NCBI GenBank assembly: GCA_030390025.1
Contig: CM059432.1
Span: forward strand, 62,188,001-62,252,000
DNA from: Squalus acanthias
Taxonomy: Eukaryota
DNA: 64,000 nucleotides
Reading direction: 5' to 3'
The notes beneath the pieces were generated by a model. The model was not told the origin of the DNA, did not search any database, and worked only from the letters and a program-made list of their open reading frames with translations. The first letter of the stretch is position 1, and every line of letters begins with the position of its first letter. Shown one piece after another: positions 17,620 through 47,843 of this stretch. The position numbers were made by a program, and so were the translations under genes.

Positions 17620-17631
17620 GTGAAAGCTCCC

Positions 17632-17763
17632 GATTTCAGGTTGATGACATTTCGGCAGAACCCAAGATGAAAGATCATCAATTTGAAATGTTAACTCTAA
17701 CTTCCTCTCTCCATAGATGTTGCCGGAGCTGCTGAGTGTTTCCAGCATTTTTTGTTTTTATTT
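17632..17763 (+). mobile_element. Degenerate Penelope-like terminal fragment with decayed hammerhead motifs
   Basis: gatgaaagatcatcaatttgaaatgttaactct...gctgctgagtgtttccagc is a diverged version of the 38.7-kb element. It is preceded by an inverted remnant, tttcaggttgatgacatttcggcagaac. Confidence 0.65.
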
Positions 17764-25619: not shown

Positions 25620-27050
25620 GGAAAGCATGGCCAGAGGGAGGAGGGCCAACAGGGCTCTCCACAGGAGACCTTACCCTCCCGGGGTATTCCGGGAGCAGTT
25701 TTCATATATCCATCTGTCAGAGGAGTAGTGTATTAGAAGGCTCCGCTTCAGCAAGGAGGTGGTCACAGAGCTCTGCAGCCAGAGCTCCAGCCTCAGCTCA
25801 GGACCAGGATGTGTCTATCGGTGGCAGTGAAGGTCACAGTCGCTCTCAATTTCTACGCCAGCGGCTCCTTCCAGGCTTCAAAAGTGTCTATTGCGAACAT
25901 CTCCCAGTTCGCTGTCCATTGCTGCATCCGGGAGGTCACAGATGCTCTCTACAAAAGGAGAAGGGAGTACATCTCATTCCCCATGACCCGAGACAAACAC
26001 CATGAACGCGCAATTTCTCTCTCTCCCCCACGGCAGCTGTCTTTCATTCTGCCAGCATTTCACACTTCACACTTCTGAGCCATCTTTTATTTCTTAACCT
26101 GTCCTATTACCATCTCGTCTTGCCTTGAGCATCTCTTAATGTCTCTACTTATCACAGACCTCCCCTTTTGTTCTTTTATTCCTTCCCCCAGCCTCCCACT
26201 TGCTTTTTTATGTTTCATTTCCTGCTTTTTTCTCCGTTCTGACGAAGGGTCTTCGACCTGAAACATTAACTCTGTTTCTCTCTCCACGGATGTTGCCTGG
26301 CCTGCTGAGTTTTTCCAGCGTTTTCTGTTATTTCAGTTTTCCAGCATCCGCAGTACTTTGCTATGGTACCATGAACGCGCATGTGGCTTCGCAAGGATAG
26401 CGGGCTTCCCCATAGTTCAGGGCGCCATTAACTGCACGCACGTGGCATTGCATCATCAAAATGCAGAGGTGTTTCCGCAGCCGCAAAGGCTACCACTCTC
26501 TGAACATGCAGTTGGTGTGCGACCACAGACAGCGCATCGTCACCATCAATGCCCGCTATCCTGGCAGCAGCCATAATTCATTCATCCTGCACCAGACTGG
26601 TGTCCCAGCACTGTTCCAACCACCTCATCAAGCTCATGGCTGGTTCCTCAGAGACAAGGGTTATCCACTCTGCACCTGGCTGATGACACCGCTCCGTAAC
26701 CCCAACACTCCTGCTGAGCTCGCCTACAATGAGAGCCAGAGCGCCACCAGGAACCTCATTGAGCAGACTGTCAGCATGCTGGAGCAACGGTTCCGGTGTC
26801 TTCACCACTCTGGAGGAGCCCTGCAGTACTCCCCTGATCAAGTATTGGTTTTCATTGTTGTGTGCTGCATGCTGCACAACCTCGCCATTCTGAGGACCCA
26901 GCCATTGCCACCAGGGATTGGTGGACCACCTCAGAAGGAGGGAGAGGAGGATGAAGAGGAGGAGGAGCAGCAACAATGTGGGAGGGAGGCGCTCAATGTT
27001 GCTTCTGCAAGGGCCATTCGTGAACGCCTCATTACACAGCGCTTCCGATG
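25620..27050 (+). pseudogene. Harbinger 2 DDE transposase, interrupted at 26013-26367
   Basis: RRPYP...FSYIHLSEE*CIRRLRFSKEVV, VKVTVALNFYASGSFQ, GFPIVQGAINCTHV, RKGYHSLNMQLVCD, YPGSSHNSFIL, DKGYPL, IEQTVSMLEQRFRCL. The conserved GAID aspartate reads N. Confidence 0.9.
26013..26367 (+). mobile_element. Non-coding Penelope-like insertion with hammerhead motif
   Basis: 14-bp TSD ACCATGAACGCGCA (25999-26012 and 26368-26381). Removing the insert restores the transposase reading MTRDKHHERACGFARIAG. Hammerhead motif at 26236-26270. Confidence 0.85.
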
Positions 27051-27371
27051 AATGAGAAAGCAGATGGCATTTGGGCTCAATAACCACATCATTACAGCCA
27101 GCCCGCAGCCCCTATGACCGGCTAAAGTTCCAATGAGAAACATGAGGAAATTTGTGACGTTGAAATAAACATTTTTATTATTCTGAACAACTGTGTCTTA
27201 TTACGCACAACCAATAACAAACAAACACAACAATTTATTAACGAACAGAACTGGTTCTTAGCGCATCGAAATAATTCTTAACAAATTGAACAATATATTT
27301 ACAAACACATCCAACTTTGGTACAAACACTCCCCCCCATTTGGTCTAAAACTTTTAGTTATTGGGCCTTCC

Positions 27372-29240
27372 TCAATGATCTCCCTCCCCTTCGCACTTCC
27401 CTCTCCCACCCCTACTGCTCCTCTGTAATCTGGCCCCAGTGGCTGCAACAAGGCTGGTAGAAGACTGCTGAATCTGGGATCCAGAGACTGCAGATGGCCT
27501 TGCAGGATGCCCTCGAACAGCTCTGGGCCTGGAGGGCCCGGCTGCAGACTGCACCAACTCTGCATGGGTGGCAGCAGTCTGGGCTGGGTTACAGGCTGTG
27601 GCAAGTGCAATGGCAGAGTGACAGTGGTGGGAGCAGGAATGCAGTCACCCTGAGAGAGGACAGCACCTTCCTGCTCGACCAACACACTGCCACTCCCCCG
27701 GGGCAGAATCACAGGATCCAGAGCAATCTGCTCGAGCACCAATTGCTAGCCTGCTGCGGCACCATCAGACCCCCGGTGGACAGTGGTCGACCCAGCTACG
27801 ATGGCAGCAGTCAGTGCTTGCGTGGTATCAATCTGAGACTGCATCAGAGCAGTCTGAGATTGCATGGCACCAACCAATGACTTGATTCTAGCACTAAGCC
27901 ATTGCTTTGCCTCGGCCTGTGCTGCAATAGATGCTGCCACCTCATCCATTACACGCGGCATGGGGTCTGGGTTTCCACGGTCTCCCTGCAAGTCAACTAT
28001 CCTCTGCAAAGTGGCAAGGATGGGCCCGAGGGTTTGCGCACAGATGACAGCTGTACTGGCGGCGGACTCCTCCACGCTCCTAGCCAGTGCATCCATGCTC
28101 TCGGGCACCCTTGCCATTGCACCCATGCTCATTGCCTGAGTATTCATCGCCGCGATATCGAGGTCCTCATCCGAGTCCTGTGCAGCGGAACTCGTGCACG
28201 CGCTCACCCTCTGGGAAGATGGCCCCCGAGCTTCCCTTTCCCCATGGCATTGCTGCAGCCCGCTGTGTCCCGGAGCTTCACCCACATCGGAGCCAATTCC
28301 TCTGCTCCCCTTCAGTGACCGCGTGGTCCCAGTATCTGATGTGTCGCCCTCGGGAGACGCAGGCAGTGAGGCTCTGGCGTGGTGTTCCTGATCCTCTTCT
28401 ACGTCGCTGCCACTGGGAGGCTGAGGGACAGGCTGTTCAGATGGTGGCTCACTATCTGAAAGCAGGAAGGCACAAGAGTGGGTTTAATGTGAGGGGAGGG
28501 GGGCAGGAAGGGAGCAAGGAATGGAGACCGTATACTTCGCTGGAAAGTGGGAAGGGCTTGTGTTGTGAGGGGGAAATGGTATGAGAGAAGAGGGAGAGGT
28601 GATGAACATACCGTTGCTGTCCCCAAGGGGGTCAACCTCTCCGACTGCCACAGCACCTACGACATGGCTCGCGATGATGCTGTCCACTCGCTCCTCCAGC
28701 TGTGTGAGGGGGTGCAGCTCGGCCTGACCTCCCGTGCTTGGCTGCTCCCTCCTGTTATGAGCAAGCTTGGCCTGCAAGAAAAAGGACAGCGGTGAGTGAG
28801 TGTGCAGCCATGTGTTTGGCAGATGTGCCTACCATAGTCGAATAGCCGTTAATATCTGCAAGGTGTGAGATGTGGATGTGACTTTTAGTAGACGGGCATA
28901 GTTGGTGGCTAAGTGTTGAGGATTTGGCAGTTTATACCGTCTACTCAGAGTGAGGTTGAGATGGTGGGATGTAGAGGTATTTCAAGCATTTACTCACCCT
29001 GACCACCCGAGTGAGGTCATTGAACTTCTTGCGGCACTGGGTGCGAGTCCTTTGGCCCACGCTTCTGAACGAGACGTACTGGGCCACCTCCCTCCACATC
29101 CTTGTGAACTCCCGGGACAATGGCCTCCTGCCAGTGTCTGGGAACAGCACTGCCCATCGGCCTTCCACAGCCACTACCAGAGCCTCCAATGCCTGGTCGC
29201 TGAACCGGCGAGCTCTCTCCCTGGGCCTCTGAGCAGCCAT
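27372..29240 (-). pseudogene. Harbinger 2 Myb/SANT-like gene; exons 29240-28998, 28771-28612 and 28455 to about 27372
   Basis: MAAQRPRERARRFSDQALEALV...WREVA...RTRTQCRKKFNDLTRVVR|AKLAHNRREQPSTGG. GT/AG sites are in phase. One premature TAG at 27746-27748 and a late frameshift. Confidence 0.87.
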
Positions 29241-29777
29241 GAGATTCCTAGTTGAAGAATTGCACCTTCTTGCAGGCCCAGGTCACAAGCAGCAATGATC
29301 AGGGTGAGCATGATTGAACCTCTCCTTTAAGAACTGGAAGGTGCCAGTCTGTCTGAGTACCAGATAATTGGCGGCGCCCGAGCTTGAGTAGCGCTCTGAG
29401 GTAGCGCCCCGTTCCCTGATGTTAGCACCCTAAGAGAAGTGTGTAGCGCTTGATTTAGCGCTCCAATCATCTCCAGGGGCGCCAGAGACGAATTTCGCGG
29501 CCGCCGGCGCCAAGGTTTGCGGCCAGCTGATGTTCGGGCCCCAAAAAGGTTGATGCCAAATTTTTCCCCCATAAAATTCTTAAGGGGCTTGACAGGGTTA
29601 ATGCTGAGAAAATGTTTCCCCTGGCTGGGGAATCTAGAATACTGGGTCACCACCTCAGAATAAGGGGTCAGCCATTTATGACTGAGATGAGGAGAAATTT
29701 CTTCACTCAAAGGGTTGTGAATCTTTGGATTCTCTACCCCAGAGAGCCGTGGGTACTCAGTCGTTGAGTATATTCAA

Positions 29778-30193
29778 TGATGCGGAGATGCCGGTGTTGG
29801 ACTGGGGTGGACAAAAGTGAGAAGTCGCACAACACCAGGTTATAGTCCAACAGTTTCATTTGAAATCACAAGCTTTCGGAGCTGCTGCCCCTTCGTCAGG
29901 TGAAGTAAAGGAATACGAATCGACAAAGCATATATAGACAGAGAACAATGCATGTGTAGCGTACAATGGCAGACGACTACATTTAATCCTCCTGACTGCC
30001 TTTCGTCACACCTCGGCAGAGAAACAGTCAGGAGGATTAAGTGTAGTCGTCTGACATTGTACGCTACACATGCATTGTTCTCTATCTATATATGCTTTGT
30101 CGATTCGTATTCCTTTACTTCACCTGACGAAGGGGCAGCAGCTCCGAAAGCTTGTGATTTCAAATAAAACTGTTGGACTATAACCTGGTGTTG
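29778..30193. mobile_element. Palindromic Penelope-like insertion (family B)
   Basis: 13-bp TSD TGAGTATATTCAA (29765-29777 and 30194-30206). 171-bp inverted arms at 29828-29998 and 30025-30195. Confidence 0.88.
30120..30157 (+). ncRNA. Minimal hammerhead ribozyme motif (mirror copy on - strand at 29866-29903)
   Basis: UCAC-CUGACGA-A-GGGGC-AGCA-GCUCC-GAAA-GCUU-GUGA. Has both core boxes, stem II, stem I UCAC/GUGA and a palindromic AAGCUU stem III. Confidence 0.72.
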
Positions 30194-30487
30194 TGAGTAT
30201 ATTCAAGACAGAGGTCGATAAATTTTTGGGAATTAAGGGATATGGGGATAGTGCAGGAAGGTGGAGTTGAGGTAGAAGATCAGCCATGATTTTGTTGAAT
30301 GGCGGAGCAGGCTCGAAGGGCTAAATGGCCGCCTCCTGCTCCTATTTCTTATGTTCTTAAGACGTTGATTAAACCACTGTTGGAGCATTGTATAGTGTTG
30401 AGGGCACTCTATTATTAAAAGAATATCGGAGTCATGGAAAATGGACACTGCAGATTCACTAGGATGATAACAGGGATAAAGCTATAA

Positions 30488-30931
30488 GAAAGACTTGCAT
30501 TTATATAGCGCCTTTCACGACCACCAGACGTACCAAAGCACTTTACAGCCAATGAAGTACTTTTTTGAAGTGTAGTCACTGTTGTAATGTAGGAAAAGTG
30601 GCAGCCAATTTGCGCACAGCAAGCTCCCACAAACAGCAATGTGATAATGACCAGATAATCTGTTTGCGATATTGATTGAGGGATAAATATTGGCCAGGGC
30701 ACCGATGATAACTCCCCTGCTCTTCTTCGAAATAGTGCCATGGATCTTTTACGTCCACCTGAGAGAGCATCTGTTTAACGTCTCATCCGAAAGACGGCAC
30801 CTCTGACAGTGCAGCACTCCCTCATGAGTATCAACCTAGATTTTTATGCTCAAGTCTCTGGAGTGGGACTTCAGCCCACAACCTTCTGACTCAAAGGCGA
30901 GGGTGCTACCAACTGAGCCACAGCTGACACT
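30488..30931 (-). mobile_element. Deu-domain tRNA SINE (SacSINE1-like)
   Basis: Reverse complement has a head gtggctcagttggtagc, central ggtgccgtctttcggatgagacgttaaac, and L2-like tail aaaggcgctatataaatgcaagtctttc. Confidence 0.75.
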
Positions 30932-33136
30932 GTGTTAATATAGTTATGAAGAGACAGGAAGAAGATTAAGGGAGGTGTTCTAATAGAAGTATTAAAAAAA
31001 TTGTAAAAGGTTTTAAGAGGATAAATAGTGAAAGATATTTTCTACTGGTCAATGAATTATTAGCAAGTAAGTTCAGAAATTAGCACTAGAAGCATAAAGG
31101 TGGAGGTTAGAAGAAATATTTTCATGCAAAGGCTCATTGGGATTTAGAAAGCATTACTGCAATTAAAATCGAGTCAATCACAATGAATTGATTAACATTT
31201 GAAGAAAAATATTAAAGGAAGCAAGCCAATTGGATTAAAATAGTCAGGTCTGATAATGGAGCTAGCACTGGCACAAACATGATGGGCCGAATGGCCTTCC
31301 ACCTGTACAATAATGTCTGATTCTGCTTTGCAGGGAGTTTAATAATAAGCATTGTAATGCCTCCTTCATAACTAAATCAATTGCTGTACCTATTATATAC
31401 AAAACAAGTTATAATTTTATTTATGGGGGATTTGAAGCAAATGCACCATTTTATCTGCTTGTATGCGGATTAGTTTATTCATTCCAATAATGTTGCAACG
31501 CCTTAGTGTTTTGGTATAATACTGTGTTCTGATGCCATTTTACAGGTTCCAAGCTTTGTTTGTCTTATTCAATTGGCTCCCTTATCCAATGCAGTCTTCA
31601 ACAACATTCTCACTCCCCAGTTCAGCACAACTCTTCTCACCTCGTTGCAATTTTCAAGCGCTTTTCAGCCTGTCTCCCTACCCCAGCCAAGACTTGTCTG
31701 ACTCATCTTCCGCTTCAATCTTCTGCCCCCACCAGACAGTCTGTCTCATCTTCTGGGGTTAGATCTTAACTGCTTTAAAGTTAATGGTGGTTGCAGCTTC
31801 AATATATAGAAAAACTGAAACAATGGTTTTTTTAAAGGGGAACAGTGAGTTACTTTTTTAAAAATGTTTGAGAATTTTCAGGACTTCAGTTTGTCCAAAA
31901 GAAAAAGAAATTGCAATTTTTTTTCAAAAAGGCTGGATTTTAGAACATAATTCGGATCAAGTACAGCATAAAGTATGTCCTTTTAAAAGACCTACAAAGA
32001 AAAAATATATTTTTTGAAATGTTATTCTACTTCTCAGTTACTCTATTGTTTTATGCAAGTTCATCGATTATGCAGCTTTAATATTTAAAAGGCAGTTTTT
32101 AAAATTAAAACTACAGTAAATTTCATAACCTCCGAAAGCACTCTTGTGCGCATGTTTTAACTGGGGAAAGTACCCAAGTCCTTGTGGCAGCAAAACAAGT
32201 TTTTTAAGTTAGATATGTTCCTGTATCTTTCTTTATTAATAATATCATGAGCCCGCATTATTTTGTAGGATATAAAGAATCCATAGGTAGGAGTCCAGTG
32301 AAGTTTGCAGATTCTGGTCTTAGTGGATGACCTAAATAAATTGTACTTGAGGTTTTCCTCTGTGGTTACAATCCTTTTCTCAATAGAAAATAACGTCACA
32401 GAAAGCAATGAAATTAGTTTCACTTTTGTCTGCAAATGCGTAAAAGTGTTGACTTTATGTGAAACTAATCATTTGACCCTTGTACAATTGACCTATTTTT
32501 TTTTTAAACGTTGCCACCTTAAAATCATTTTAGAATATTTTACTGTGATATGCAGAACCTTCTGTTCTGCTATGCTGTGATGTATATGATTTTCTCTTAC
32601 TGTATTGGACACTATTTTAAAAAAATCACTCCGATGTGATTATTTGGGTAATAAATATAACACAGAAATTGAACAAGAACTGGTAGTTGCATCTCATCCT
32701 GCTCTCCCATATTAAGTCATGAGTAGCATTAAATATAAAAGGAAATATATTTGTAGTTGTGGGTGTGTGCAAGTGATATGTATAAATTGCGATAGTGCTG
32801 TTCGTGGAACATCAAAGGGTGCACTGTTTAATCAGGATAGAAATATTATACTGTATAAAACACAATTAATATTCTGCTCAACTATAGGTGTGTGTTCCTC
32901 TAAGGCTACAAATTCTAATTGATAAAGAGTGAGTGAGTTTGTACAGATGCTGCAGACACCGTGGCTGCAGTATTTTGTTTCTTTCTAATTTTTCCTTCCT
33001 CTCCTCATGTCTCCTACCACCCCCTCACTCCCATCACTACTACCTTTTCCACTTTATGCTACTACTCAACCCGTGTCCTCCCCTCCCTCTTACTCTACTG
33101 TCACTCACCTCACTCTTAACTCCCCAAGAGGGAATA

Positions 33137-35160
33137 TAGGAACAAGAGTAGGCCATTGAGCCCCTCGAGCCTGTTCCGCCATTCAATGAGATCATGGCTG
33201 ATCTGCGATCTAGTGCCATATACACGCCTTTGGCCTATATCCCTTAATACCTTTAGTTAACAAAACGCTATCAATCTCCGATTTAAAATTAACAACTGAT
33301 CTAGCATCAATTGCCATTTGCGGAAGAGAGTTCCAAACTTCTACCACCCTTTGTGTGTAGAAGTGTTTCCTAATTTCACTCCTGCAAGGTCTGGCTCTAA
33401 TTATAGACGACTCGCAGTTTCCCGACAACAGATGTTAGGCTAACTGGCCTATAATTCCCTGGTTTCCCCCTCTCGCCATTCTTAAATAGCGGAGTGACGT
33501 GCAATTTTCCAATCTAAAGGAGCGGTTCCTGAATCGAGAGAACTTTGGAAGATTATAGTTAGAACATCTGCAATGTGCTCACCTACTTCCTTTAAAACCC
33601 TGGGATGGAAACCATCTGGTCCTGGGGATTTGTCACTCTTTAGTGCCATTACTTTCTTCATTACTGTTATTTTACTTACATTAATTTTATTGAGTCCCTG
33701 TCCCTGATTTAATATTAGTTTCCTTGGGATTTCTGGCATGCTACCTCTTCTCTACTGTAAATACTGACGCAAAGTAATTATTCAACATGTCCGCAATTTC
33801 CTTATTATCATTGACAAAATCACAGCTTTCAGTTTTTAAGGGGCCAACATTGCTCCTGACTACCCTCCTTTTACTAATATAATTGTAAAAATTCTTTGTG
33901 TTGATTTTGATATCCCTTGCAAGTTTCTTTTCATACTCCCATTTTGTAGCTCTTACTGACTATTTTGTGACCCTTTGCTGTTCTTTGTATTTTTCCCATT
34001 CACCAGGATCTGTACTATTTTTTGCATTCTTGTATGCTTTTTCTTTTAGTTTTATGCTGTCCCTCACCTCTTTAGTCATCCATGGCCATTTTTGTGGCAA
34101 GTAGAGCTCTTGCTCCTCGGGTATAAACTGGTTCTGTATCACCTTAAATTCTTTTTTGAACATCTCCCTCTGATCGTCTGTCGTTTTACCCATTAACAGA
34201 TTTGCCCAGTTTACTGTGGACAGTCTGCCTCGTCCTGTTGAAGTCGGCCTTACCCAAATCGAGAATCTTAGTAGCTGTTTCGTATTTCTCCCTTTCAAAC
34301 ACTACGTTGAACTCGATCATGTTATGATCGCTATTGGATAAATGTTCACACGCAGTTCGGCTGGTAACTAAATCTGGCTCATTACTCATTACTAAATCTA
34401 ATATGGCATGCTCCCTCATTGCCTCTAGGACATATTGTTGTAGAAAACTATCCCGGACACACTCAAGAAATTCAGTACCTTTCTGACAGGTGCTAGTCTG
34501 CTTATCCCAATCTATATGAAAATTAAAATCCCCCCGCTAAAACCACTCTGCCTTTGCTACACGCTTGTCTAATCTCTGTATTTATACAATCTAGCACTTC
34601 ACAGCTGCTATCATGGGGCCTATACACAACTCCCACTACAGTCTTAAATCCCTTCCTATTTCTTAATTCTACCCATAAAGTCTCCACTGCCTGCTTACCT
34701 CTCGTTATATCTTCTTTTATCATTGAAGTGATTTCATCCTTAATCACTAAAGCTACTACTCTCCCTCTGCCATTTTCCCTGTCTTTCCTGTAGACCTCAT
34801 AACCTGGTATATTTAGTTCCCAGTCCTGACCATCTTGCAGCCATGTCATACCCTCCAATTTGAATTTGTGCCTGCAGTTCATTCAATTTATTCCTTATAC
34901 TCCGTGCATTTGTATAAAGAACGCTTATTTGGGCCACCCACCTTCTTTATTCAACGATTATTTATAGTTGTATTAATTAGTTTATCTAGGTAAGTTTTTA
35001 ATTTAATAAAGTACGTTATAGTTTCCCGCTCTTAGTTTAAACCACTGTTCCAGCTTAGAGGGAAAAAAGTTAATACTCACCAACCAATCACCTACCTGCT
35101 GTCCTGTGACGTCACTCCTTGTTTTTTTGTTGTTTTTAAATGCTCCGCTCTCCCGATGTG
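33137..35160 (-). mobile_element. Internally deleted CR1 retaining 5' UTR and 3' UTR
   Basis: The 3' UTR and last ORF2 codons (33137-33405) are fused to the NYRPVSLTSVVGKL region. The endonuclease runs to about 34940 and then jumps to a 5' UTR homologous to 59820-59925. ORF1 is absent. Confidence 0.85.
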
Positions 35161-35744
35161 CTCTGCTGGGGCAGTGGGCTCCTCATGTTTGATCTATTTT
35201 TCTCCTCCCTCCCTCTTCCTAATCTTTTTGTTTCCCTCAAAGAGGCTTTGTTTACTTACAAAATTCAGATTTAAAAAAAAAGAAATCAAAGTAGATGGAG
35301 GAAAAATACTGTCTGTCTGCCTCATTCTTTATCTCCCTCCCTGTCTCATTGGTGTTAGAATCTTTGTCTCGTATCTTTAAGCAATTAGCTGTTACCTTTC
35401 TAATTCAACAAAACACAGGTGAGCTAATTCACTTGCCTTTTTTTAAATTGAACTTTTAGCATTAGGGAAAACTCTCGACACATGTACTCGTACTCGCGCA
35501 CACGTACACACACAAAATGACTTTTTTTAAAAACATACACACAATATAAATTTTGCCTGAATAAACTTTTGAGATTTTGCTTACTATACTATTGTCCAAG
35601 ACATTATTATGTATTAAAACTAGGATTCCCAGGTAGGATACCTATTATCTCTATCCATAGAATAATGCATTTTTAGGGCACAGGACTTGAGATTTTAGTT
35701 TGCCTTGCAATCAGATAAGATTTATTTTATTTTTTTAAACCATG

Positions 35745-36095
35745 GAGAAGGTACCCTAGTGGCTTATTACGTTGCCAAGTCTAGAACTGAGCCATACGGA
35801 CTGAGTATCACAGGTTTAATTCTCTGTGCTGAGTTAGTTGATTTCCACCAGCTTGACCGTGGGAATGAAATCATTGGTTTCAGTGCCCTGGGTCCAGGAG
35901 GGAAAAATTCAACATGGGGCAGTGACTCCTGCTGGAAAATGCACACGCCTGGGCATCAGGTAGCATCAGGATTGGGGTTGATTGTCAGCCCTCCCGTAGT
36001 TAAATAATCTTCTGCGATAGGCTCGCACAGGATAAACAGCCACTTGTGTGATGGGCCGGAGGGCAGCTGGTAACCGTGGAACTGTAACCCTTAAA
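35745..36095 (+). mobile_element. Ancient tRNA-derived SINE
   Basis: tctctgtgctgagttagttgat...gggaaaaattc...cctgctggaaaatgc...gtggaactgtaaccc, shared with the 12390 and 18340 copies. Confidence 0.55.
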
Positions 36096-37284
36096 AATCA
36101 TCATCTTCGTGAGGGTAAAAATGCTACAAGAAAACTGGGGCACAAATTTGCTGACAAGGGACAATATGTGCTCTCGCCTTCTGTGTGAGCATGAAATGAG
36201 AGTTAAATTGCTGCCAGCAGCAACAAATGGGTCATATATCGAAGTGGAAAATAGCATGCAGAGATCCAATTGATTTGCATCTGCTGAAAAAATATAGGTC
36301 TACATCTCTTTAATTTGAGTTCTGTGAAGTTTTGTCAGTGTTTGAATTGCATGGTGTGCAAATTCTCATTCCTCTTTGCATTTACTAGTGTCTACGATCA
36401 AGATTTTATGCTTAAAGAAGGAATCCAGTATGATTATTTCTAACTATCTGTTCTAAGCCATAAGAAATACGGTATGTTACCAGACACGAACACATCTTGG
36501 GAATTCAGATAACATTCTCCAACTGCCCTACCCTCATTCTTGTGGTTTATAATATCTGAATTCTCGACGTTATAGCCTTTTAATACATCTCATTATAGCG
36601 ATCATCGCATATCGTTTATATAATGCTATAACATTTTTATTATGTATTTTTCTTTGATTTTGACAGCAGAAAAGATAGTTGGGCAGTTGCTATACTTTTA
36701 TTTTTAATTTGTCCTTTTCTTTACAGACTTATCTGTTGAAAAATATAGTGCACCAGGTTTGTTTTTCCTGTGGGCAGTTTTGCTGTTTCCTGCTTTGTTC
36801 TGAGAATAACATGTGGTCTGGCAGGAATATAGTGTGTGCTGTCATTTGCTCACACATGACGTTGCCTGATGCATGTCTCGGCAGATGCTGTTCATAAACA
36901 GATCCCACAGATTTTGAGCAAGCTGGCTGAAAAGCAGTTAGTTCATTCACAGGATAGGTTTGAGAAGCTGTTGATGTGACATCAGCGCGTGACTGTGCGT
37001 AGCCTTGATGTGACGGTTGGGGGAGGCATTATAGTGTTTGTTCCTTCGGCAGCTTTTTATAGAACTGATCCAGCTGTAGCTGGTTATACTCAGCCAGTTC
37101 TGTTAAAGCAGGCTTGTACACGGATAGTGACTTTAAATTTGTGTATGAATAGCAAAATCTGAAATGGTTTTAAAATTCTGCTAATGAATTTTAGTTTTAC
37201 ATTTAAATGGACATCTAATTGCAGATGATATAGACTTTTTCGGAGAACCTTTAACTCTTTGAATACTGTTTGCACTTTTGCACT

Positions 37285-37936
37285 TGTCTACTGCCACAGT
37301 ACTGAAACGGCCCTTATCAAAGTCACAAATTACATCCTATGTGACTGTGCCGATGGTAAACTATCCCTCCTCATTCCTTCTCGTCCTGTCTGTAGCCTTT
37401 GACACGGTTGACCACACCATCCTCCTCCAACGCCTCTCTTCCATCGTCCAGCTGGGTGGGACTGCCCTCGCCTAGTTCCATTATTATCTATCCAGTCATA
37501 GCCAAAGAATCACCTGCAATGACTTCTCTTCCCGCTCCCGCACCATTACCTCTCGAGTTCCCCAAGAATCGATCCTTGGCCTCCTATTTCTCATCAGCAT
37601 GTTGCTCCTTGGTGACATCATCCACAAACACGTCAGATTCCACATGTACGCTGACGACACCCAGCTCTATCTCACCACCACCTCTCTCGACCCCTCCACT
37701 GTCTCTAAATTGTCAGACTGCTTGTCCATCATCCAGTACTGGATGAGCAGAAATTTCCCCCAACTAAATATTGGGAAGACCGAAGCCATTGTCTTCAGTT
37801 CCCACCAGAAACTCCATCCCTCTCCCTGGCAACTGTCCGAGGCTGAACCAGACCGTTCGCAACCTTGGTGTCGTATTTGACCCTGAGATGAGCTTCCGAC
37901 CACATATCCACTCCGTCACCAAGATCGCCTACTTCC
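37285..37936 (+). mobile_element. L2 LINE RT fragment
   Basis: HSTETALIKV, AFDTVDHTILLQRL, HMYADDTQLY, QLNIGKTEAIVF, VRNLGVVFDPEMSFRPHI...KIAYF. Confidence 0.88.
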
Positions 37937-37939
37937 TAC

Positions 37940-38462
37940 TGATACACATATCAGGATGTAGTTGAATGTACCATTGCTCTCACCTTTCCTGCCCTGGTTA
38001 AGTCATTGAACCGCTTCCTACAATGTATCCATGAGCGTGGCAGTACGCTCCTGCTGCTGGCCTCTTGGTGTCCCCAGCCGGCTTCTTCTCCCGTTGCTAA
38101 GGAACAGTATATGCCTCTGGGTCCTCCCAGCCCCTAGCAGCACATCCAGGGAGGCGTCACTGAACCGAGGCGCAGCCTTTGGCCTTCTGGACTCCATTCC
38201 AGCACTTCCTTCTCTCCGGCTCCCATCTTCAAATCCTTCAAATTACATGTTTGGAGTGTCCCTTTAAATACAGGAGTTGCAATCACATCATGCGAGTCGT
38301 CATCACGCCTGATGGCGCTAATTGGTTGGGAAACCCGGAAATCATCCGGTAATAGTGGCTGGGTTAAAAAGCCACTGACAGATGCACTGCACTGACTTTA
38401 GTGTTTCCTGTGCGCTATTGAACTCCCCGCTCCCAGTGCGTTGCTAACTTAAAATCCAGCCC
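37940..38462 (-). mobile_element. Harbinger 3 terminal fragment with Myb/SANT exon 1 (38197-37984)
   Basis: Minus strand MESRRPKAAPRFSDASLDVLL...ILF...SSRSVLPRSWIHCRKRFNDLTRAGK|gtgag (frameshifted). TIR-like end aaaatccagccc at 38451-38462. Confidence 0.78.
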
Positions 38463-38597
38463 ATAGAATTTTTAAATCTTTCAAAGTTGACTTAAAATTT
38501 TATCTGATAATTCTAATCGAATATTGGACTCTGAAATGGCACAAGTTTGAATCCTATGCTGGACTGACAAAATTTAATGCAACTGCTATTGGAAATA

Positions 38598-38856
38598 CGA
38601 TAGCAAAATACTGCGGATACTGGAAATCCGAAATAACAACAGAAAACGCTGGAAAAACTCAGCAGGCCAGGCAGCATCCGTGGAGAGAGAAACAGAGTTA
38701 ACGTTTCAGGTCGAAGACCTTTCGTCAGAACTGGAAAAAATTTCCTGCTTTTTTCCAGATCTGACGAAAGGTCTTCGACCTGAAACGTTAACTCTGTTTC
38801 TCTCTCCATGGATGCTGCCTGGCCTGCTGAGTTTTTCCAGCGTTTTCTGTTGTTAT
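38598..38856. mobile_element. Palindromic Penelope-like insertion (family A)
   Basis: 14-bp TSD TGCTATTGGAAATA (38584-38597 and 38857-38870). 109-bp inverted arms at 38632-38740 and 38749-38857. Same family as 26013-26367. Confidence 0.88.
38696..38732 (-). ncRNA. Minimal hammerhead ribozyme motif (mirror copy on + strand at 38757-38793)
   Basis: AGUU-CUGACGA-A-AGGUC-UUC-GACCU-GAAA-CGUU-AACU. Stem I AGUU/AACU, a stem II hairpin, and a palindromic AACGUU stem III. Confidence 0.72.
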
Positions 38857-39021
38857 TGCTATTGGAAATAGTTTTACTGTTCCTTGGTAGACAACTGCAA
38901 CACTCCCTTGGAAGAAGGAAATTAGCTGGCTGGTCCTGCCTTGCAGAAGTACACCACCTACTATGGTGGATTTAGAATCACGATTAATGGTAGATGGAGA
39001 CTTGTCTACCCCTGAGACTAA

Positions 39022-39475
39022 GGCCAGAATTTTCCCATCAGAAAACGGCTGGGTTTGGAGCATGGAGGCAGTTAAATTGTTAAAAATGTGACTCCCGCCC
39101 ACTGCCAGTTTTGCTGGCAGAGGGGCGGGCGACCAACCCACTGCCGGGGGGAGTTACCTCAATTTAAATATTGTAATGAGGCTGGAAGCCTCTATTTTCC
39201 CCTCCATTTTGAATTTAACTGCCTGTGGAAGGGTTTCACACAATTCGTGAAACCCGGCAGTTAAACCGAGGCGGGGACTGCAGCATCCAGGAGGTAAGTG
39301 GCTTTATACCTGGATCCAGGGTCCTTAACATACCCACCCCCCACGATCGGGGACCCTCTCACGAGATCTCCGCTCGCCTTCCCTCAGCCCGCACCCCCCA
39401 ATGATGATGATGAGGCCAGCCATGATCCTTCGGTGACCGACCCCAATCCTCCGATTTCACCCCCCATCCCTAATG
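39022..39475 (+). mobile_element. Non-autonomous Harbinger-like terminal fragment
   Basis: Begins GGCCAGAATTTT, matching the Harbinger 1 TIR, followed by GC-rich subterminal-like sequence. No partner TIR seen. Confidence 0.45.
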
Positions 39476-42008
39476 AAGAAGTACAACATTCAGTACGATA
39501 CTGTACCTTACAGAAGAGGAAGGTCCCAGGTTTGATCTCCGGTTTGCACTTAGTTAGATGTTCTTAGCTGGCAACGTTTGGACTTTGTGTGCCTAGTTAA
39601 AGGAAAAATCAACCAGAATTCTACTACCAATTGCTATCCAGTAAATATTACTGAAAAGTACACGTGTGGATGTTGGTTTGGCTGTGATGTACCCTACACT
39701 TGCATCTGCCTACTGATACTCTTTGTACAGGGATGCATATGACGAATGGTCACTTGGTTGAGACAATTGTGGAACTGTATCCCAACATGAATCAGCATGT
39801 TCAGAGGAGAGATGGGAAGAAAACTGAAAAAAATTAAAGGGTATTCTGATGAGAGGCAGCAAAAATGATTGTATAAAGGTAATGGAGGGAAAGTATAAAG
39901 ACAGTTTTGAAGTTAACACAGCTTGTTTATGGCAAATTACATAGATGGACTTGAAATGCTTATATGTATACCGAAGAAAAATGTTTTCCATATTGTTGTA
40001 AAGAGGTTTTGTAATGGGTTTGTTTGAGTCCATTTCAAGCTGCTGCCTTGTTTGATATGTTTCACTAACTTTTCTTTGCCAGTGACCCATAGACTATTTT
40101 TTACTCACTAATACAATTAAACATAAACTTGTAACAGATATAATGCACACACATTCACAATTAGTAAAAGTTTAGCTAAGATTAAGAAAAGCTGCTTGGA
40201 TGGTTCAAAAAAGATTGCTACACATTTTCTAATGACTACAAAGTATAAGTTAGTTTAAAGTTAAAAGTATTTTTTCCCCAAAGAATAGAAACCATTTTAC
40301 TTAGGAAAAATGGGGATTGAACCCAGTTGTGTTGCATGTTATGATGAAAATGGACCTTGTGTGATTTTTGTGTATAGCATGCATTATTTTTACATTGGAA
40401 AAATGGTGCAAAGCCCATGTCATAAGTGTGCGAGTGTTGTGTGTAGGTGTGCATATGTTAAGTACTGCAGTTAAAAGAAATATTTTGCGCATTGTAACAC
40501 TGTTGGCCAATTCATTATTTTTCCCCTTTTTATTTTTTACTCAATTTTTCATTTGATTTTTTTTCACTCCATTTGGGAAGCAGTCTGTTTCCAGGATGCT
40601 GCATTTTTCCTTCACAACCAGCTGATGGTCCATCTGGCATGGCATTTTGAACCTGTGGTACTGAGTTCTAATGCACTGACACATTCCGTCCTTTAGAATG
40701 TCACATTTAACACATTTTAATCTGAAATTGTCAACATTTGACCTGAACATTGTAAATTTATTTTATGCCTAATCAGTTTATTGGTGGGTACAGTTTTTAT
40801 AGTGCGACAATTTAAAGTTTTAAACTTTTCGTTTGCATTGCTTGCTATATCAAAACAATCAAAGCTGTGTTTAAAAACATATATAACCTGGATATGCTGT
40901 TCCAGAAACTGATTAAAATTAGCAATAAACAGATTTGTTGCTCGCTTTAAGCAAAGCAGGACCGAGTTGTTTTTCACGAAGAGAACACAATGTACTGGCT
41001 GTACCCAGCTTCAAGAACTGTTTATCATAATGTTCTTCCACTCTGATTGGTAGAGTGAATGGAATTGTACTCCGCCTACTCCAGCTATCCCATTGAGGCC
41101 TCTTGGAGATTTGTGGTTACTTTTGTGATTCTAGCTGCCTGTCACAGGCTGACATTTTTGACCCTGCAGGGAATAGCAGGCAGTTCCTGGAAACTAGTGT
41201 GTGTTGGGAACTGTCACTGTAACTCTGTAAACAGAACTACACACTCGTTTAAAGGGACATGAATGAAAACTTTTCAGAAAAACAAGAGTGAAAAACATTG
41301 AAAACTATATGCAGGAATGTTACTCAGTGTGCTTTGTTGTTTCAAGAAGACTAAGGAATTCAATTGCACATACACTTGCTGTTTTTCCCAGAAGGTTAAG
41401 TTATTTATACATCCAGGATATGGATAAATTACTTAATTATTTGTATATATTGGAGAGAAATTTATAGAATTTCTTCCAGTAGTGTGTTTTTGCCAAGAGT
41501 GGGCCTAAAATTCCAATTCTTTTTGGCGCACAAGTGGTGTATTTCTAGTTTAGGGGACTGCAATTTGGGGTGTAAGTGGTGCACATATTGCTAATAACAG
41601 CATAATAAGGGCCAAAGCTGCTGTCCTTGGAATTCCAACATTTATATCAGAATGGCACCTCTCTTAAGCTTGGAGAAAAAAAGGTTAGTTACCTACACAC
41701 CTTGTCAAAGTTGAGTTCACAAACATTGTGTGAAACATCAGCTTTGACTGAAGCAGTTAGAATTTTTTTTTCTCATCTGTGTAACTAAGAAAGGATCCTG
41801 CAAGCTTTTAGTAGTTTCAGGCAGGGAAATATTTTGCCTGCGGTGAGTGTAATGAATGAAAAAGTGCCGCACGAATAAAGAGGCAAGAAAGAAAGAGCCA
41901 AGGGACACTAGGTAACTTACCTTGGCTGCTCTGGCGATGCCATTAAACTTCCTGCAATGCAAAGGTGTCCTGGGGTTCAAAGGGTTAGTATTCGCTGTCA
42001 CAGGCACC

Positions 42009-43372
42009 TTTTTTTTTTATTCATTCCTGGGATGTGAGCGTCGCTGGCAAAGCCAGCATTTATTGCCCATCCCTAATTGCCCTAGAGAAGGTGGTGGTGG
42101 GTCACCTTCTTGAACCGCTGCAGTCCATGTGGTGATGGTACTCCCACAATGCTGTTAGGGAGTTCCAGGATTTTGACGCAGCAACGATGAAGGAACGGTG
42201 ACATATTTCCAAGTCAGGATGGTGTGTGACTTGGAGGGGAACTTGCAGGTGATGGTGTTCCTATGCGCCTGCTGCCCTTGTCCTTCTAGGTGGTAGAGGT
42301 CGCGTGTTTGGGAGGTGCTGCCGAAGAAGCCTTGGCGAGTTGCTGCAGTGCATCTTGTAGCTGGTACACACTGTAGCCACAGGGTGCAGGGAGTGAATGT
42401 TTAATGTGGTGGTTGGGGTGCCAATCAAGAGGGCTGCTTTGTTCTGGATGGTGTCGAGCTTCTTGAGTGTTGTTGGAGCTGCACTCATCCAGGCAAGTGG
42501 AGAGTATTCCATCACACTCCTGATTTGTGCCTTGTAGATGGTGGATGGGCTTTGAGGAGTCAGGAGGTGAGACACTCGCCGCAGAATACCCAGCCTCTGA
42601 CCTGCTCTTGTAGCCACAGTATCTATGTGGCTGGTCCAGTTAAGTTTCTGGTCAATGGTGACCCCCAGGATGTTGATGGTGGGGGACTTGGCGATGGTAA
42701 TGCAGTTGAATATCAGGGGGCGGTGATTAGACTCTCGCTTCTTGGAGATAGTCATTAACTGGCACTTGTGTGGTGCGAATGTTACTTGCCAATTATCAGC
42801 TCAAGCCTGAATGTCATCCAGGCCTTGCTGCATGCGGGCATGGACTGCTTCATTATCTGAGGAGTTGCGAATGGAACTGAACACTGTGTAATCATCAGCG
42901 AACATCCCCATTACTGACCTTATGATGGGGGCAAGGTCATTGATGAAGCAGCTGAAGATGGTTGGGCCTAGGACACTGCCTTGAGGAAACCCTGCAGTGA
43001 TATCCTGGGGCTGAGATGATTGACCTCCAACAACCACAACCATCTTCCTTTGTGCTAGGTATGACTCTAGCCAGTGGAGAGTTTTCCCCCTGATTCCCAT
43101 TGACTTCAATTTTACTAGAGCTCCTTGATGCCACACTCAGTTAAATGCTGCCTTGATGTCAAGGGCAGTCACTCTCACCTCACCTCTGGAATTCAGCTCT
43201 TGTCCATGTTTGAACCAAGGCTGTAATGATGTCTGGAGCCGACTGGTCCTGGCGGAACCCAAACTGAGCATCGGTGAGCAGGTTATTGGTGAGTAAGTGA
43301 CACTTGATGGCACTGTTGGCGACACCTTCCATCACTTTGCTGATGATTGAGAGTAGACTGATGGGGCAGTAA
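42009..43372 (-). mobile_element. CR1-group LINE of a second lineage (YKAQVRSVMEYS type), 3' part
   Basis: [62 protein letters not shown]...YKAQIRSVMEYSPLAW. Confidence 0.87.
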
Positions 43373-43377
43373 TTGTC

Positions 43378-43540
43378 TCTACTCTACTTTCTATTTTCCC
43401 ACCCTATCCCCATATCCCTTGATTCACGTAATGTCCAAAAGTGTATTGATCTCAATCTTGAAAATACTCAGCGACTGAGCATCCTCAGCCCTCTGGAGTC
43501 GAGAATTCCAAAGATTCATGCCCCTCAAAGTGAAGAAATT
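43378..43540 (-). mobile_element. Short CR1 3' fragment
   Basis: NFFTLRGMNLWNS...SLSIFKIEINTLLD. Confidence 0.65.
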
Positions 43541-44961
43541 GAAAAATGGGCGAACTAAAGCTCTGAATGAGCCACCCTTTGGAGTGCAATGTGAATTTGG
43601 ATCAAAGAATGAGCCAACAGAAAGAACCAAAAAGCCACACCTGGGACTTTCCTCCACCATGCTGTCAGATCCTTGCCCTTTCCCCTCCCATTGCTGACAG
43701 ACCTAAGAAATCAGTAGTGAGCCAATACCCACATTCCACCCTGCCCCAGTTCAGCCCAATCTCAGGTTCCCTATCCATAGTGCTGATAAACCCCATTGCC
43801 AACAGTGCTGCCAAATCTAACGACTATCTTCCCAGTGCTGCCAAAGATCAGGACTGCTGTCAGTGCTGCTAAACCCCATGACCTCTTCCTCCCCCCCCCC
43901 CCCTTCCCCTGTACTGCTAACCATAAGATACCTACCTACAACCTGGTACATTTTGAAAAGCATTCTTGCCTTTTGTGTCATCACCTTTGAATAGCTAAGG
44001 GGGAAAAAAAGGGTAAAAGAGTGCATGTGACATAAAGGCCATTCATTAATCAATGAATACAAGAGTAACAAAGGCCACTGATCTACAGAAATGAACAATC
44101 CAAGAATTGAAACCCTGAAACATGGATAAAAATCCCAGAATACCATGTAATAAAAAACAGAATTTGACTTATTCAGTCACTGTAAATCATTGGCCCTGGT
44201 CATATAGCATTACACCTTATCGTTATAAAAGAACAGATCCTCCAACTCACCAAATATAGGAGACCTATGTATAATCTGTATATTAAAGCGGTGAGTGGTC
44301 TCAAGATTCGAATGGCATTACACATGTAACTGCCACTTTCAGAATAACTATACTTGACCAATTAAAAGTTTAATTCTCCCCTCCCCTGAGCAAGACGTCT
44401 GCCATCAACTCTTCCCAGCCCACCTCCACCTCAACCCCCAACGGAGTAAGTTAGTGGCTTTAACCACCATCTTCAGATGCAAGTTTTAAATTAATGAATC
44501 GAAAATTGGGTCGTTCCTTCGTGGTTGTGCACTCCAACCCGGCCCATTTTCCCAATATACACTGTGCCCAGGTGATGCAGCGCACCACGCCACAGACCCA
44601 GAAAAATCTCCTATATCGTACAACTCCACTGTTTTGAAATCAAGTCTCACTACGCAGTCTCCTTCTCAGACTCATCTGTTCCCAGGATATTAAAGCTGTG
44701 AACTCCTCATTTCAATTCAGGCCTTCTCCCAACCAGCTTTATTCAAAAAGCAGCTTCTATAAACAGGACTTGCCTCGTGAATTGAATCTTCACGTTTTTG
44801 ATAGTGCTGCACCAACAACAGTGCAGCACTCCCTCACTACTGCACTGAAGTATCAGCCTGGATTATGTACTCAAGCCTCTGGAGTGGACCTTCTGACTGA
44901 GGTAAAAGTGCTAACCCTGAGAAAAGGCTACACCTAGTTAACTAGAAATGTAAACACATAG

Positions 44962-45151
44962 GGGGGAAAATTCAGTTACTTTAAGAAGGGGAGGAAGGCC
45001 TGCAGTACCGGGGCACGTGGCACCGTGATATTCCCTCTTGGGGTACTACCGATGAATTTCGGCCACGGGGGCACTAATTTTTTCAGGGTGCTAAAAGTAG
45101 CGCCCCGGCAAAGTTAGTGCCCCAAAGGGGGCGCGACTCAACTTTTCCCCC
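44962..45151. mobile_element. Harbinger-like MITE (about 190 bp)
   Basis: Left end GGGGGAAAATTCAGT; right end reverse-complemented GGGGGAAAAGTTGAGT. Flanks TAG/TAA form an imperfect 3-bp TSD. The TIR resembles the right end of Harbinger 2. Confidence 0.65.
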
Positions 45152-45404
45152 TAATATTAGTGATAATGTTGGGAGGTTCTGTTGAAGTTTACCTCGTGAC
45201 CATCAACGCTGGGACTTGTAGCTTGGAATAACAAAAGACTCTACAACATTATATAGAATTACATGGAATATGCAGCATTTGTTAAAGTTACTTCACTTAT
45301 CTGTGGTTTTTATATAATTTCAAATATAAACTCCAAGCAACTTCATTCATAAGCATAATAAATATTAGTTGGATATGTAGGCTAGTCAGACCCCACCTGA
45401 GGCA

Positions 45405-46777
45405 ATTTTGTTTCATTCGTTCCTCAGATGTGGGCATCGCTGGCAAGGCCAACATTTATTGCCCATCCCTAATTGTCCTTGAGAAGGTGGTGGTGAGCCG
45501 CCGCCTTGAACCGCTGCAGTCCTTGTGGTGAAGGTACTCCTACAGTGCTGTTGGGAAGGGAGTTCCAGGTTTTTGACCCAGCGGCACTGAAGGAACAGCG
45601 ATATATTTCCAAGTCAGGGTGGTGTGTAACTTGGAGGGGAACTTGCAGGTGGTGGTGTTCCCATGCGCCTGCTGCCCTTGTCCTTCTAGGTGGTAGAGGT
45701 TGCGGGTTTGGGAGTTGCTGATGGAAAAAGCCTTGGCGAGTTGCTGTAGTGCATCTTGTACATGGTACACACAGCAGACACGGTGCGCCGGTGGTGGAGG
45801 GGGTGAATATTTAAGGTGGTGGATGGGGTGCCAGTGAAGTGGGCTGCTTTGTCCTGGATGGTGTCGAGCTTCTTGAGTGTTGTTGGAGCTGCACTCATCA
45901 GGTGAGTGGAGAGTATTCCATCAGACTTCTGACTTGTGCCTTGTAGATGGTGGAAAGGCTTGGGGGAGTCAGGAGATGAGACACTCGCCACAGAATACCC
46001 AGCCTCTGACCTGCTCTTGTAGCCGCAGTATTTATGTGGCTGGTCCAGTTAAGTTTCCTGTCAATGGTGACTCCCAGGGTGTTGATGGTGGGGAATTCGG
46101 CAATGGTAATGCCATTGAATGTCAACGGGAGGTAGTTAGACTCTCGCTTGCTGGAGCTGAGTGGTCCTGGCGGAAACCAAACTGAGCATCGGTGAGCAGG
46201 TTATTAGTGAGTAAGTGCCGCTTGATAGCACTGTCAACGACACCTTCCATCACTTTGGTGATTATTGAGAGTAGACTGATGGGGTGGTAATTGGCCAGAT
46301 TGCATTTGTCCTGCTTTTTGTGGACAGGACATACCTAGGCAGTTTTTCAGATTGTCTGGTAGATGCCAGTGTTGTAGCTGTACTGGAACAGCTTGGCTAG
46401 AGGTGCAGGTAGTTCTGGAGCACATACCTTCAGCACGACAGCTTGGATGTTGTCGGGGCCCATAGCCTTTGCTGTATCCCGTGCGCTCAGCCGTTTCTTG
46501 ATATCACCTGGAGTGAATTGAATTGGCTGAAGACTGATTTCTGTGATGGTGGGGACCTCGGGAGGAGGCGGAGATGGATCATCCACTCGGCACTTCTGGC
46601 TGAAAATGATTGCAAACGCTTCAGCCTTGTCTTTTGCACTCCCGTGCTGGGCTCTGCCATCATTGATGATAAGGATATTCATGGAGCCTCCTCCTCCCGT
46701 TAGTTGTTTAATTGTCCACTACCATTCACGACTGGATGTGGCAGTACTGCAGAGCTTTGATCTGATCCGTTGGTTGT
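45405..46777 (-). mobile_element. Second copy of the 42009 LINE lineage, with internal deletion near 46153
   Basis: KAMGPDNIQAVVLKVCAPEL, FPTINTLGVTIDRKLNW...YKAQVRSLMEYS, and the same 3' tail. Confidence 0.85.
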
Positions 46778-47118
46778 GTTACATTTTATCCATTTTTGAA
46801 CAATTTTTTTAAATTGTTACATTTTATCTGTCCGGCTTCTAAAACCGTAAGCCTGGTGCCACTTGAGCGCTATTTTCTGATTTGCTTTAATCTCTTACTG
46901 TTTTTCAGCCTTGGTGCTCTTGCACACTGGATCTTGGCTCTTCACCTTTGTTCCACGATTTAAGAAAAATGTCACTAGATACTGATTGGGAATGGAAAGT
47001 CAGGCTAATTTTTTCTTCCCTCACCCAGGATCACTGAGGTCAGTTGTAGCACTTCCAGTATTGCCCCAACTGAAATCAAAGGAATTATGTTTAATATTGC
47101 TCCATGTGCCACCCATAT

Positions 47119-47172
47119 TTCAAATAAAACTGTTGGACTATAACCTGGTGTTGTGCGACCTCTCAATTTTGT
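47119..47172 (+). mobile_element. 54-bp Penelope-like family B micro-insertion
   Basis: ttcaaataaaactgttggactataacctggtgttgtgcgac matches 30159-30195. 10-bp TSD CCACCCATAT (47109-47118 and 47173-47182). Confidence 0.8.
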
Positions 47173-47843
47173 CCACCCATATATGCCACTGGTCTGCTCT
47201 AACATTTAAAAGATTACAACTAAAAAAAAACCTGTTGATAACTTCCAATAGTGTTAAAATTAGAATACTGACAGGATTCTCATTTGTATCCTCTCTTTAG
47301 TGCTGTCAACAGGGAATTATTGCTGGGACTTATGGCAGGGGCAAGTCACATCTAATTTTATTTTTCCCCATGCTGTGGTGTGTGTAACCAAGAGAGGAGA
47401 TTAAACTATTGTGTGCAAAGTGATGTAACCTTGTCATCAACAAGATAGAAGTCCAGCTATGCATCTCTGCAATTGTTCTTGAGAACAAAACAAAATCTGG
47501 AAGACTGTTTACTGCAGTCCGGCTGCAGGTGCTGTGGCATTTGTTTATTTGCAATCTGGTAGTCACAATTCTACTATCCGTACTCCACAACAACACACAA
47601 ATCTAGCCCAGTGTTTATTAGATCATTGCTATTCCCAACACCTAAAAACCTGATCAATTTAATCTTGTGGAATAAACAGAGTAATTATGTAAGGACAATC
47701 ACATGAGGTGAAATTAAATTTTAAAAACAAGTGATTAACAATAATGGGTTGGGACATAGTCAAAATAAAAAAGTTGATCTTAAAGGAGAAGGTACCCCTA
47801 CCAGAAATTAGACTAATGAGTTTAATGATTTGTTTTCCTGTAG

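Follow-up and report, generated by a model that had tools for sequence, protein, structure and literature searches.

A head-to-head pair of truncated, probably Penelope-type element ends within target site duplications in a SPIDR intron of Squalus acanthias

The window analysed here is a stretch of 64,000 nucleotides of Squalus acanthias (positions 62,188,001 to 62,252,000 of contig CM059432.1, assembly GCA_030390025.1). A Pfam scan placed the domain DUF4503 near 47.9 kb, and the relatives of the exon that carries it are shark SPIDR proteins; SPIDR is a DNA-repair gene. Using tblastn with five shark SPIDR proteins, we located five exons on the plus strand between 16.3 and 63.8 kb. This placement bears out the assumption of a previous sequence-only reading of this DNA, made without database searches, that the plus arm of the hairpin insertion described below is the sense copy in a host intron. 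The insertion belongs to a repeat family that we call A; a second family, B, has a hairpin insertion in the same intron. Coordinates of all features are collected in Table 1.

Table 1. Features of the family-A insertion, its host intron and other repeat copies in the window.
Feature	Coordinates	Strand	Basis or remark
Left TSD, 14 bp, boundary ambiguous by 1 nt	38584..38597	+	single copy at empty site in run X8
34-nt tail, minus copy only	38598..38631	-	equals tail of solo copy at 26334-26367
Minus arm: 5'-truncated element end, antisense to SPIDR	38632..38740	-	cut 12 nt upstream of hammerhead core
Apparent spacer: element sequence extending the plus arm upstream	38741..38748	+	match to solo A copy
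Plus arm: clipped element end lacking the tail, sense to SPIDR	38749..38856	+	arm comparison
Right TSD, 14 bp	38857..38870	+	exact direct repeat
Minimal type I hammerhead motif, intact	38696..38732	-	core 38700-38728; predicted from motif anatomy
Sense hammerhead motif with stem I mismatch	38757..38793	+	core 38761-38789; predicted paired with opposite arm in pre-mRNA
SPIDR intron, 27,140 bp, GT..AG, host of the family-A insertion	20704..47843	+	tblastn exon placement
Solo family-A copy, 355 bp, full tail, decayed core	26013..26367	+	14-bp TSD 25999-26012 / 26368-26381
Family-B head-to-head insertion, 171-bp arms, 13-bp TSD, 50-nt one-sided extension	29778..30193	.	inside LINE 3' end
Old decayed A-like head-to-head pair	17634..17763	.	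plus copy 79% identical, minus copy 28 nt only
Short family-B end	47117..47178		without core

The family-A insert is 259 bp long and lies between exact 14-bp direct repeats, whose identity stops short of 15 bp. Its inverted arms, compared over 38632-38740 and 38749-38857, are complementary at 107 of 109 sites. The two mismatches, at 38680/38809 and 38730/38759, both sit on the plus arm, at 38759 and, as a CpG-type change, at 38809. All coordinates of the sequence-only reading (a 259-bp insert, a 14-bp TSD, 109-bp arms and about two mismatches) were thereby reproduced. The 34-nt tail starts with a 5-bp stem-loop, and the target is AT-rich, with 29% GC over the 34-nt site. The insert consists of a 5'-truncated end with an adjacent inverted 5'-truncated copy; that is, two 5'-truncated copies of the 3' end of an abundant repeat stand head to head within TSDs. 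A separate likeness was seen between the target at 38574-38597 and the tail at 38598-38631, on both strands (6 nt exact; 10/11 plus 5 nt with a gap). It scores 16, as against 10 for the insertion sites of family B and of the solo A copy. The comparison is post hoc and marginal, since 3.0% of 5,000 random window sites and 5.6% of 3,000 GC-matched sites score as high; the likeness is left out of the argument.

The window holds four further related inserts, from both families. The solo A copy reaches about 210 nt further upstream than the copies at 38598-38856 and sits in a Harbinger-type transposase remnant. The family-B hairpin interrupts a LINE, other copies of which are uninterrupted within the window. 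In the decayed A-like pair at 17634-17763, around which no TSD was found, the plus copy is clipped at about the same place as the family-A plus arm. The clipped copy is on the plus strand in all three head-to-head pairs of the window, for which the chance expectation is one in four. Three smaller observations concern these copies. A near-perfect 21-bp tandem array (17431-17626) adjoins the truncated minus copy of the A-like pair, where the rest of the arm and the TSD are missing. The short family-B end (47109-47182) stops inside the tail and has 6 nt in common with a 10-bp TSD, which suggests homology-assisted priming. The 26-nt spacer of the family-B hairpin (29999-30024), together with the next bases, looks on the minus strand like the beginning of a hammerhead core with its stem II, which may reflect a short template switch or chance.

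To ask how the insertion is represented in public contigs, those of 4 of the 24 listed runs (X3, X5, X8 and X12) were aligned to 37900-39600, giving 30 listed records, with 193,601 more pieces beyond the listing. In run X8 (organism C), a 554-nt contig goes from 38242-38583 directly to 38857-39059, with 344 and 210 letters on either side; this is the orthologous empty site with one copy of the TSD. The sequence-only reading had named an assembly artefact among the outcomes that would speak against it, and the empty site shows the insert to be real. In record 1 of X12 (organism F), 117 letters separate the two listed pieces and the cover extends to the left flank, which appears to agree with the empty site. 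Run X3 (organism A) contains both outer junctions with 0 differences, at depths of 19.7 and 21 against 21.4 in a nearby unique contig. These junction contigs enter the insert by only 26 and 23 letters, less than the 31-letter bridging rule, and X3 is possibly the source sample. Run X5 has almost no cover of the flanks of the insert. Between the flanks and organism C there are 27 differences in 554 letters, and between the arms of the insert 2 in 109, which fits an insertion younger than the split from organism C, unless conversion levelled the arms. Summed over the element, contig depth comes to 0.5-10 million, whereas the flanks have about 20 or less. Depth is not copy number, but family A is clearly very abundant in all four runs.

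Each arm has the anatomy of a minimal type I hammerhead: a 4-bp stem I, CUGACGA, one unpaired A, a 5-bp stem II and GAAAC-GUU, with a palindromic AACGUU in place of stem III. Stem I pairs AGUU with AACU in the minus motif and AGAU with AACU in the plus motif. Both cores of the twin hammerheads with palindromic AACGUU described by the sequence-only reading were confirmed. A relaxed type I hammerhead scan of both strands of the 64-kb window returned five motifs, each of them in family A or B, whereas 20 mononucleotide shuffles gave none. There was no Rfam hammerhead match to the insert up to E=1, the matches being to miRNA-hairpin models and below threshold, and the hammerheads are predicted from motif anatomy. 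Identity with a miRNA precursor (mir-3747) was rejected, the Rfam score of 44.8 bits being below the gathering threshold of 63.

Four anatomical features of Penelope elements are found in family A: a minimal hammerhead in the terminal repeat, a tail at one end, an inverted 5'-truncated copy, and a TSD in an AT-rich target. On this anatomy, family A is likely to be Penelope-like, and it is very probable that the insert consists of Penelope-type ends from one event, as the sequence-only reading had inferred. Six-frame Pfam scans of 9301-53402 gave no Penelope-type RT or GIY-YIG domain, and no long copy of family A lies in the window. A 45-aa translation through the family-A end, the one of three frames free of stops, had no match among 10 candidates. 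In a representative library the same query gave eight weak matches, five to short proteins (63-107 aa) and three to unrelated repetitive proteins. The five short proteins look like gene calls over the family-A repeat, and four scanned proteins among the eight contained no RT or GIY-YIG domain. Family-A pattern scans of viral and metagenome contigs gave 0 matches, as expected for a shark repeat. Other identities were considered and rejected. The copies are head to head, not head to tail, and the solo copy has one motif, which excludes a non-LTR retrozyme. A MITE or DNA transposon does not agree with the 34-nt offset of the inverted repeat from the TSD on one side, the solo copies and the variable apex. 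The 5' start of the solo copy was considered as a second, cleavage-derived unit, a weak likeness by eye that gave no BLAST self-match at E<0.5. A possible link to the ancient vertebrate hairpin repeats Eulor and UCON was also dropped: the accessible part of PMC5753468 only gives UCON13 as Penelope, and contains neither 'hairpin' nor 'palindrom'.

The head-to-head, one-tailed layout is not new, having already been described for endonuclease-bearing Penelope-like elements. The accessible text of Arkhipova et al. 2013 (PMC3846280) gives an inverted pseudo-LTR, a one-sided 31-bp tail and a 9-bp TSD as typical Penelope structure, treats head-to-head as the usual form and proposes self-priming. Pen2a_Av of Adineta vaga in that paper resembles family A in its head-to-head inverted pseudo-LTR, unequal arms, one-sided tail of about 31 bp and TSD around the insert. 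Compared with the Adineta vaga elements there, however, the family-A insert has no ORF and no second, direct pseudo-LTR, only two truncated ends; its TSD is 14 bp rather than 8-10 bp, and one base is common at its junction where those elements have an 18-38-bp palindrome. Self-priming as proposed in PMC3846280 involves an antisense RNA template, whereas our reading involves nascent cDNA. Similarly, Craig et al. 2021 (PMC8557442, accessible part) describe an inverted 5'-truncated copy with a 30-40-bp tail at one end, and name the origin of tandem, inverted and tailed forms as open; a curation guide (PMC8969392, accessible part) lists inverted pseudo-LTRs and short 3' extensions among known peculiarities.

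The closest biochemical comparison is PAc, a Poseidon-type PLE of Anolis carolinensis. According to the accessible text of Frangieh et al. 2024 (PMC11167929), the PAc protein cuts and extends both strands, two RT start sites bound the tail, and cleavage is not needed in vitro. PAc is like family A in having a hammerhead about 70-100 nt before the end, two ends that bound the tail, a stem-loop near the start site and an AT-rich target. In contrast to PAc, no protein was found for family A, which may belong to Poseidon, Neptune or another clade, and inverted copies are left unexplained in the accessible part of PMC11167929. The metazoan PLE minimal hammerheads of Cervera and de la Pena 2014 (PMC4209133) share with family A a short stem I, an unpaired base before stem II and a palindrome that replaces helix III, and they too occur mostly as single truncated copies and as pairs on opposite strands. 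Stem II is 5 bp in family A and 7-8 bp in Schistosoma; the opposite-strand motifs are 33 nt apart in family A and 100-700 bp apart in PMC4209133, the accessible text of which names no shark. In vitro, according to that text, a single minimal hammerhead from S. mansoni was not cleaved, and the cleavage of dimers was weak. Non-LTR retrozymes (Li, Clavereau and Pollet 2026, bioRxiv 10.64898/2026.07.22.740005, accessible part) are, like family A, non-coding and PLE-derived with a type I hammerhead, but they form head-to-tail tandem repeats, whereas the family-A insert is head to head with a TSD. For LINE-1 (bioRxiv 10.1101/2024.12.14.628481, accessible part), the second-strand nick as primer, or self-annealing of a 3' end on about 2 bp leading to an inverted duplication, resembles our model for family A; the LINE-1 inverted duplications, however, are of genomic DNA beside the insertion, and family A contains the same element segment twice.

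We then examined the apex of the hairpin. The arms are separated by 8 nt (38741-38748), which the sequence-only reading had taken as a spacer. Its length stands, but it is not a separate spacer: the bases extend the plus arm and match the solo A copy, the 16 nt of 38740-38755 recurring without change at 26217-26232, where they directly precede the hammerhead of that copy. A 15-mer from 38740-38755 occurs only twice in the window, at the apex and in the solo A copy. The plus copy thus begins 20 nt before the core and the minus copy 12 nt before it, with one base (A38740) common to both arms. Since both copies are cut just upstream of the motif, the family-A hammerheads lie close together, their cores 33 nt apart; the cores of the family-B hairpin, in contrast, are 225 nt apart, each 99 nt inside its arm. 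The two families are unrelated outside the core, as had been claimed, BLASTN finding only an 11-nt core match (E=0.53). The claim that they have the same layout holds for the one-sided tail and the head-to-head arrangement, but not for hammerheads at the apex, which in family B are in mid-arm. What families A and B have in common is head-to-head truncated ends with a one-sided extension, which agrees with the earlier inference that two unrelated families share an integration route.

Contigs of the family in the four runs provide further views of these boundaries. Among 15 listed contig joints (601 more exist), 14 connect the two arms, at differing apex positions, so that the apex of the family is not fixed. 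The apex offsets of these 14 joints are 1-52 nt, with a median of 13, and the exact 38740-38748 apex is not among them. The listed joints have sides of 21-30 letters and a likeness of 88 and were picked by depth, and some may be misalignments. Because the 14 rows were selected by depth and are bounded by arm length, the offsets do not serve here as proof of coupling between the arms. One joint of X12 goes from 38856 to 38599, from the clipped end through 31 other letters to the full tail of an opposite copy (tail to tail), at a depth of 93.5. Loose contig ends, among the 24 listed of 2,785 rows, gather at 38630 (X3, X5, X8) and at 38630-38632 (X12), with 80-415 records per row, a flank agreement of 0.34-0.38 and flanks that are unrelated and AT-rich. 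In all four runs this pile falls at most 3 nt from the clip site of the family-A plus arm and, because loose ends gather there across runs, the clip site is a family-wide end. Loose ends with unrelated flanks also lie at 38731-38733, the 5' edge of stem I (X3, X5 and X8; 68-153 records per row); among the 24 listed of 2,785 rows, this points to a possible hot spot at which the RNA fold causes truncation.

These observations provide the basis for a model of the insertion. We regard the insert as probably the dead-on-arrival product of one Penelope-like retrotransposition event, without a function of its own. In this model the GIY-YIG endonuclease of the element would nick both strands about 14 nt apart, and reverse transcription, primed by the bottom-strand nick, would begin at an internal site directly ahead of the tail and stop about 20 nt past the hammerhead, which yields the clipped plus arm. 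The 3' end of this cDNA would then fold back on its own A-run (1 nt of pairing, an 8-nt loop) and be copied to give the minus arm. Finally, the top-strand nick would prime at the tail end of the RNA to supply the tail, and annealing of the resulting second cDNA with the folded-back strand would close the insertion. Fold-back from the clipped arm yields exactly the observed apex but no tail, and a second priming is needed because a clipped cDNA cannot template the tail; each nick therefore probably primed synthesis on RNA, the one at the internal site and the other at the tail end. Such priming agrees with the behaviour of the purified Anolis protein, in which cutting and extension involve both strands and the tail lies between two start sites. 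Fold-back from the tailed arm is disfavoured, because the extra upstream sequence on the clipped arm would need a further deletion. The minus arm differs from the solo A copy at 11 of 140 sites plus a 3-bp gap and the arms from each other at 2 of 109; since the arms differ less from each other than from the solo copy, a single template for both fits, although gene conversion could instead have made them similar. The one-base pairing is thin support for a snap-back, and a DNA fold of the cDNA end does not predict the 8-nt loop. For the last two steps as written, a fold-back copy of the minus arm and a tail by second priming, we have a slight preference.

The same structure could have arisen with no fold-back at all, if both nicks primed on RNA, both cDNAs stopped close to a common block that lies directly upstream of the hammerhead, and the two antisense cDNAs were end-joined head to head through a 1-nt microhomology. 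We consider this less likely. In its favour, the one-sided tail follows from it directly, purified Anolis protein, a predicted dimer, extends both strands (PMC11167929, accessible part), and the loose ends at 38731-38733 in X3, X5 and X8 suggest that two RTs could stop nearly together. However, that peak is drawn from 24 listed of 2,785 rows, and in family B, where the ends of the two copies are at most 26 nt apart and lie about 100-125 nt upstream of the hammerhead, near-symmetry arises without such a block. Being one copy only, the family-A insert cannot separate a fold-back copy of the minus arm from an RNA copy with end joining.

It is far less probable that the hairpin is itself the mobile unit, MITE-like or a pre-formed fold-back, copied whole. 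Long inverted repeats within a TSD speak for it, and some listed joints are deep (up to 730 in one run), so that certain hairpins exist in several copies; but the inverted repeat lies 34 nt off the left TSD, the same end occurs solo with a 14-bp TSD, and the apex differs among the 14 listed joints, none of which has the 38740-38748 apex. An assembly artefact or chance palindrome is the least credible account of all. No contig crosses the apex among the records listed for the four runs, and the sole run with both junctions may be the source sample; the exact TSD, the orthologous empty site, the two arm mismatches and the one-sided tail speak against it, as does the agreement of the apex with an independent copy.

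Returning to the preferred fold-back model, we speculate, tentatively, that hairpins of this kind record the order of Penelope integration: the clipped arm would be made first, from the internal site, fold-back would occur on 1-3 bases, the loop would always extend the clipped arm, the tail would be added second by priming from the other nick, and the folded hammerhead would be a stop for reverse transcription and not a cutter, which would produce the pile of 5' ends at the edge of stem I. If this is true, the in vivo origin of the inverted one-tailed Penelope structure would be settled by the many hairpins that two unrelated families have left in a single shark genome. No paper testing spacer polarity was found in the literature searched, a search whose coverage mostly excluded subscription journals.

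The sequence-only reading had also proposed that the stem I mismatch may weaken cleavage of the host pre-mRNA. The mismatch itself (AGAU on the sense copy) is present, but the proposed effect is not borne out. In each of the four runs, 96.5-99% of the depth of family contigs at 38759 is T, the base that the solo A copy also has, and the A of the insert is likely a rare change, probably a neutral mutation after insertion. When the plus-strand RNA was folded, the arm paired with its complement with a probability of at least 0.999 at all five sites probed; the predicted probability of stem II in the transcript was about 1e-17, and opening the sense core would cost 44 kcal/mol. The complement, the minus arm, is transcribed before the sense hammerhead in the SPIDR pre-mRNA. 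Based on this folding, the sense hammerhead is predicted to be sequestered in a 109-bp duplex of the pre-mRNA and the family-A ribozyme motifs to be unable to cut host RNA. We infer that the hammerheads are passengers from the pseudo-LTR of the element. A 109-bp intronic duplex may serve as a substrate for RNA editing.

Could host selection nevertheless have favoured the mismatch, an intact sense hammerhead being expected to cut SPIDR pre-mRNA? The plus arm is indeed sense in the SPIDR intron, both arm mismatches are on it, the sense core of the solo A copy is decayed, and a depletion of tandem hammerhead repeats from Xenopus introns is reported (bioRxiv 10.64898/2026.07.22.740005, accessible part). 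Against this stand the predicted values for stem II and core opening, the inactivity in vitro of a monomeric minimal hammerhead (PMC4209133, accessible part) and the intact sense core of family B in the same SPIDR intron; furthermore, two of two mismatches falling on one arm has p=0.5. Strand bias in core integrity, named as a check by the sequence-only reading, did not appear among seven copies in the window, the short family-B end without a core being left out: 1/4 sense and 2/3 antisense cores are intact (Fisher p=0.49), with little power and too few copies to exclude a weak bias. Selection by the host is therefore quite improbable, and we hold with high confidence that the stem I mismatch has no host role; the insertion as a whole shows no sign of one.

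Taken together, the family-A insertion is a real, young and ordinary Penelope-type case. As a single copy it matters little, and its value is as a data point on how Penelope inversions form. LINE-1 twin priming inverts a non-overlapping part of the RNA. With the spacer assignable to one arm, fold-back versus twin priming becomes countable genome-wide through spacer polarity.

Two observations were made beside the main subject. In the left flank, about 147 bp (38320-38466) are seemingly absent from record 1 of X12 (organism F) and present in organism C. The region from about 25400 to 29300 is a Harbinger-type element, with a DDE transposase remnant, split by the solo A copy, on the plus strand and the remnant of a Myb/SANT ORF on the minus strand; a diverged relative of it lies near 9400-10100.
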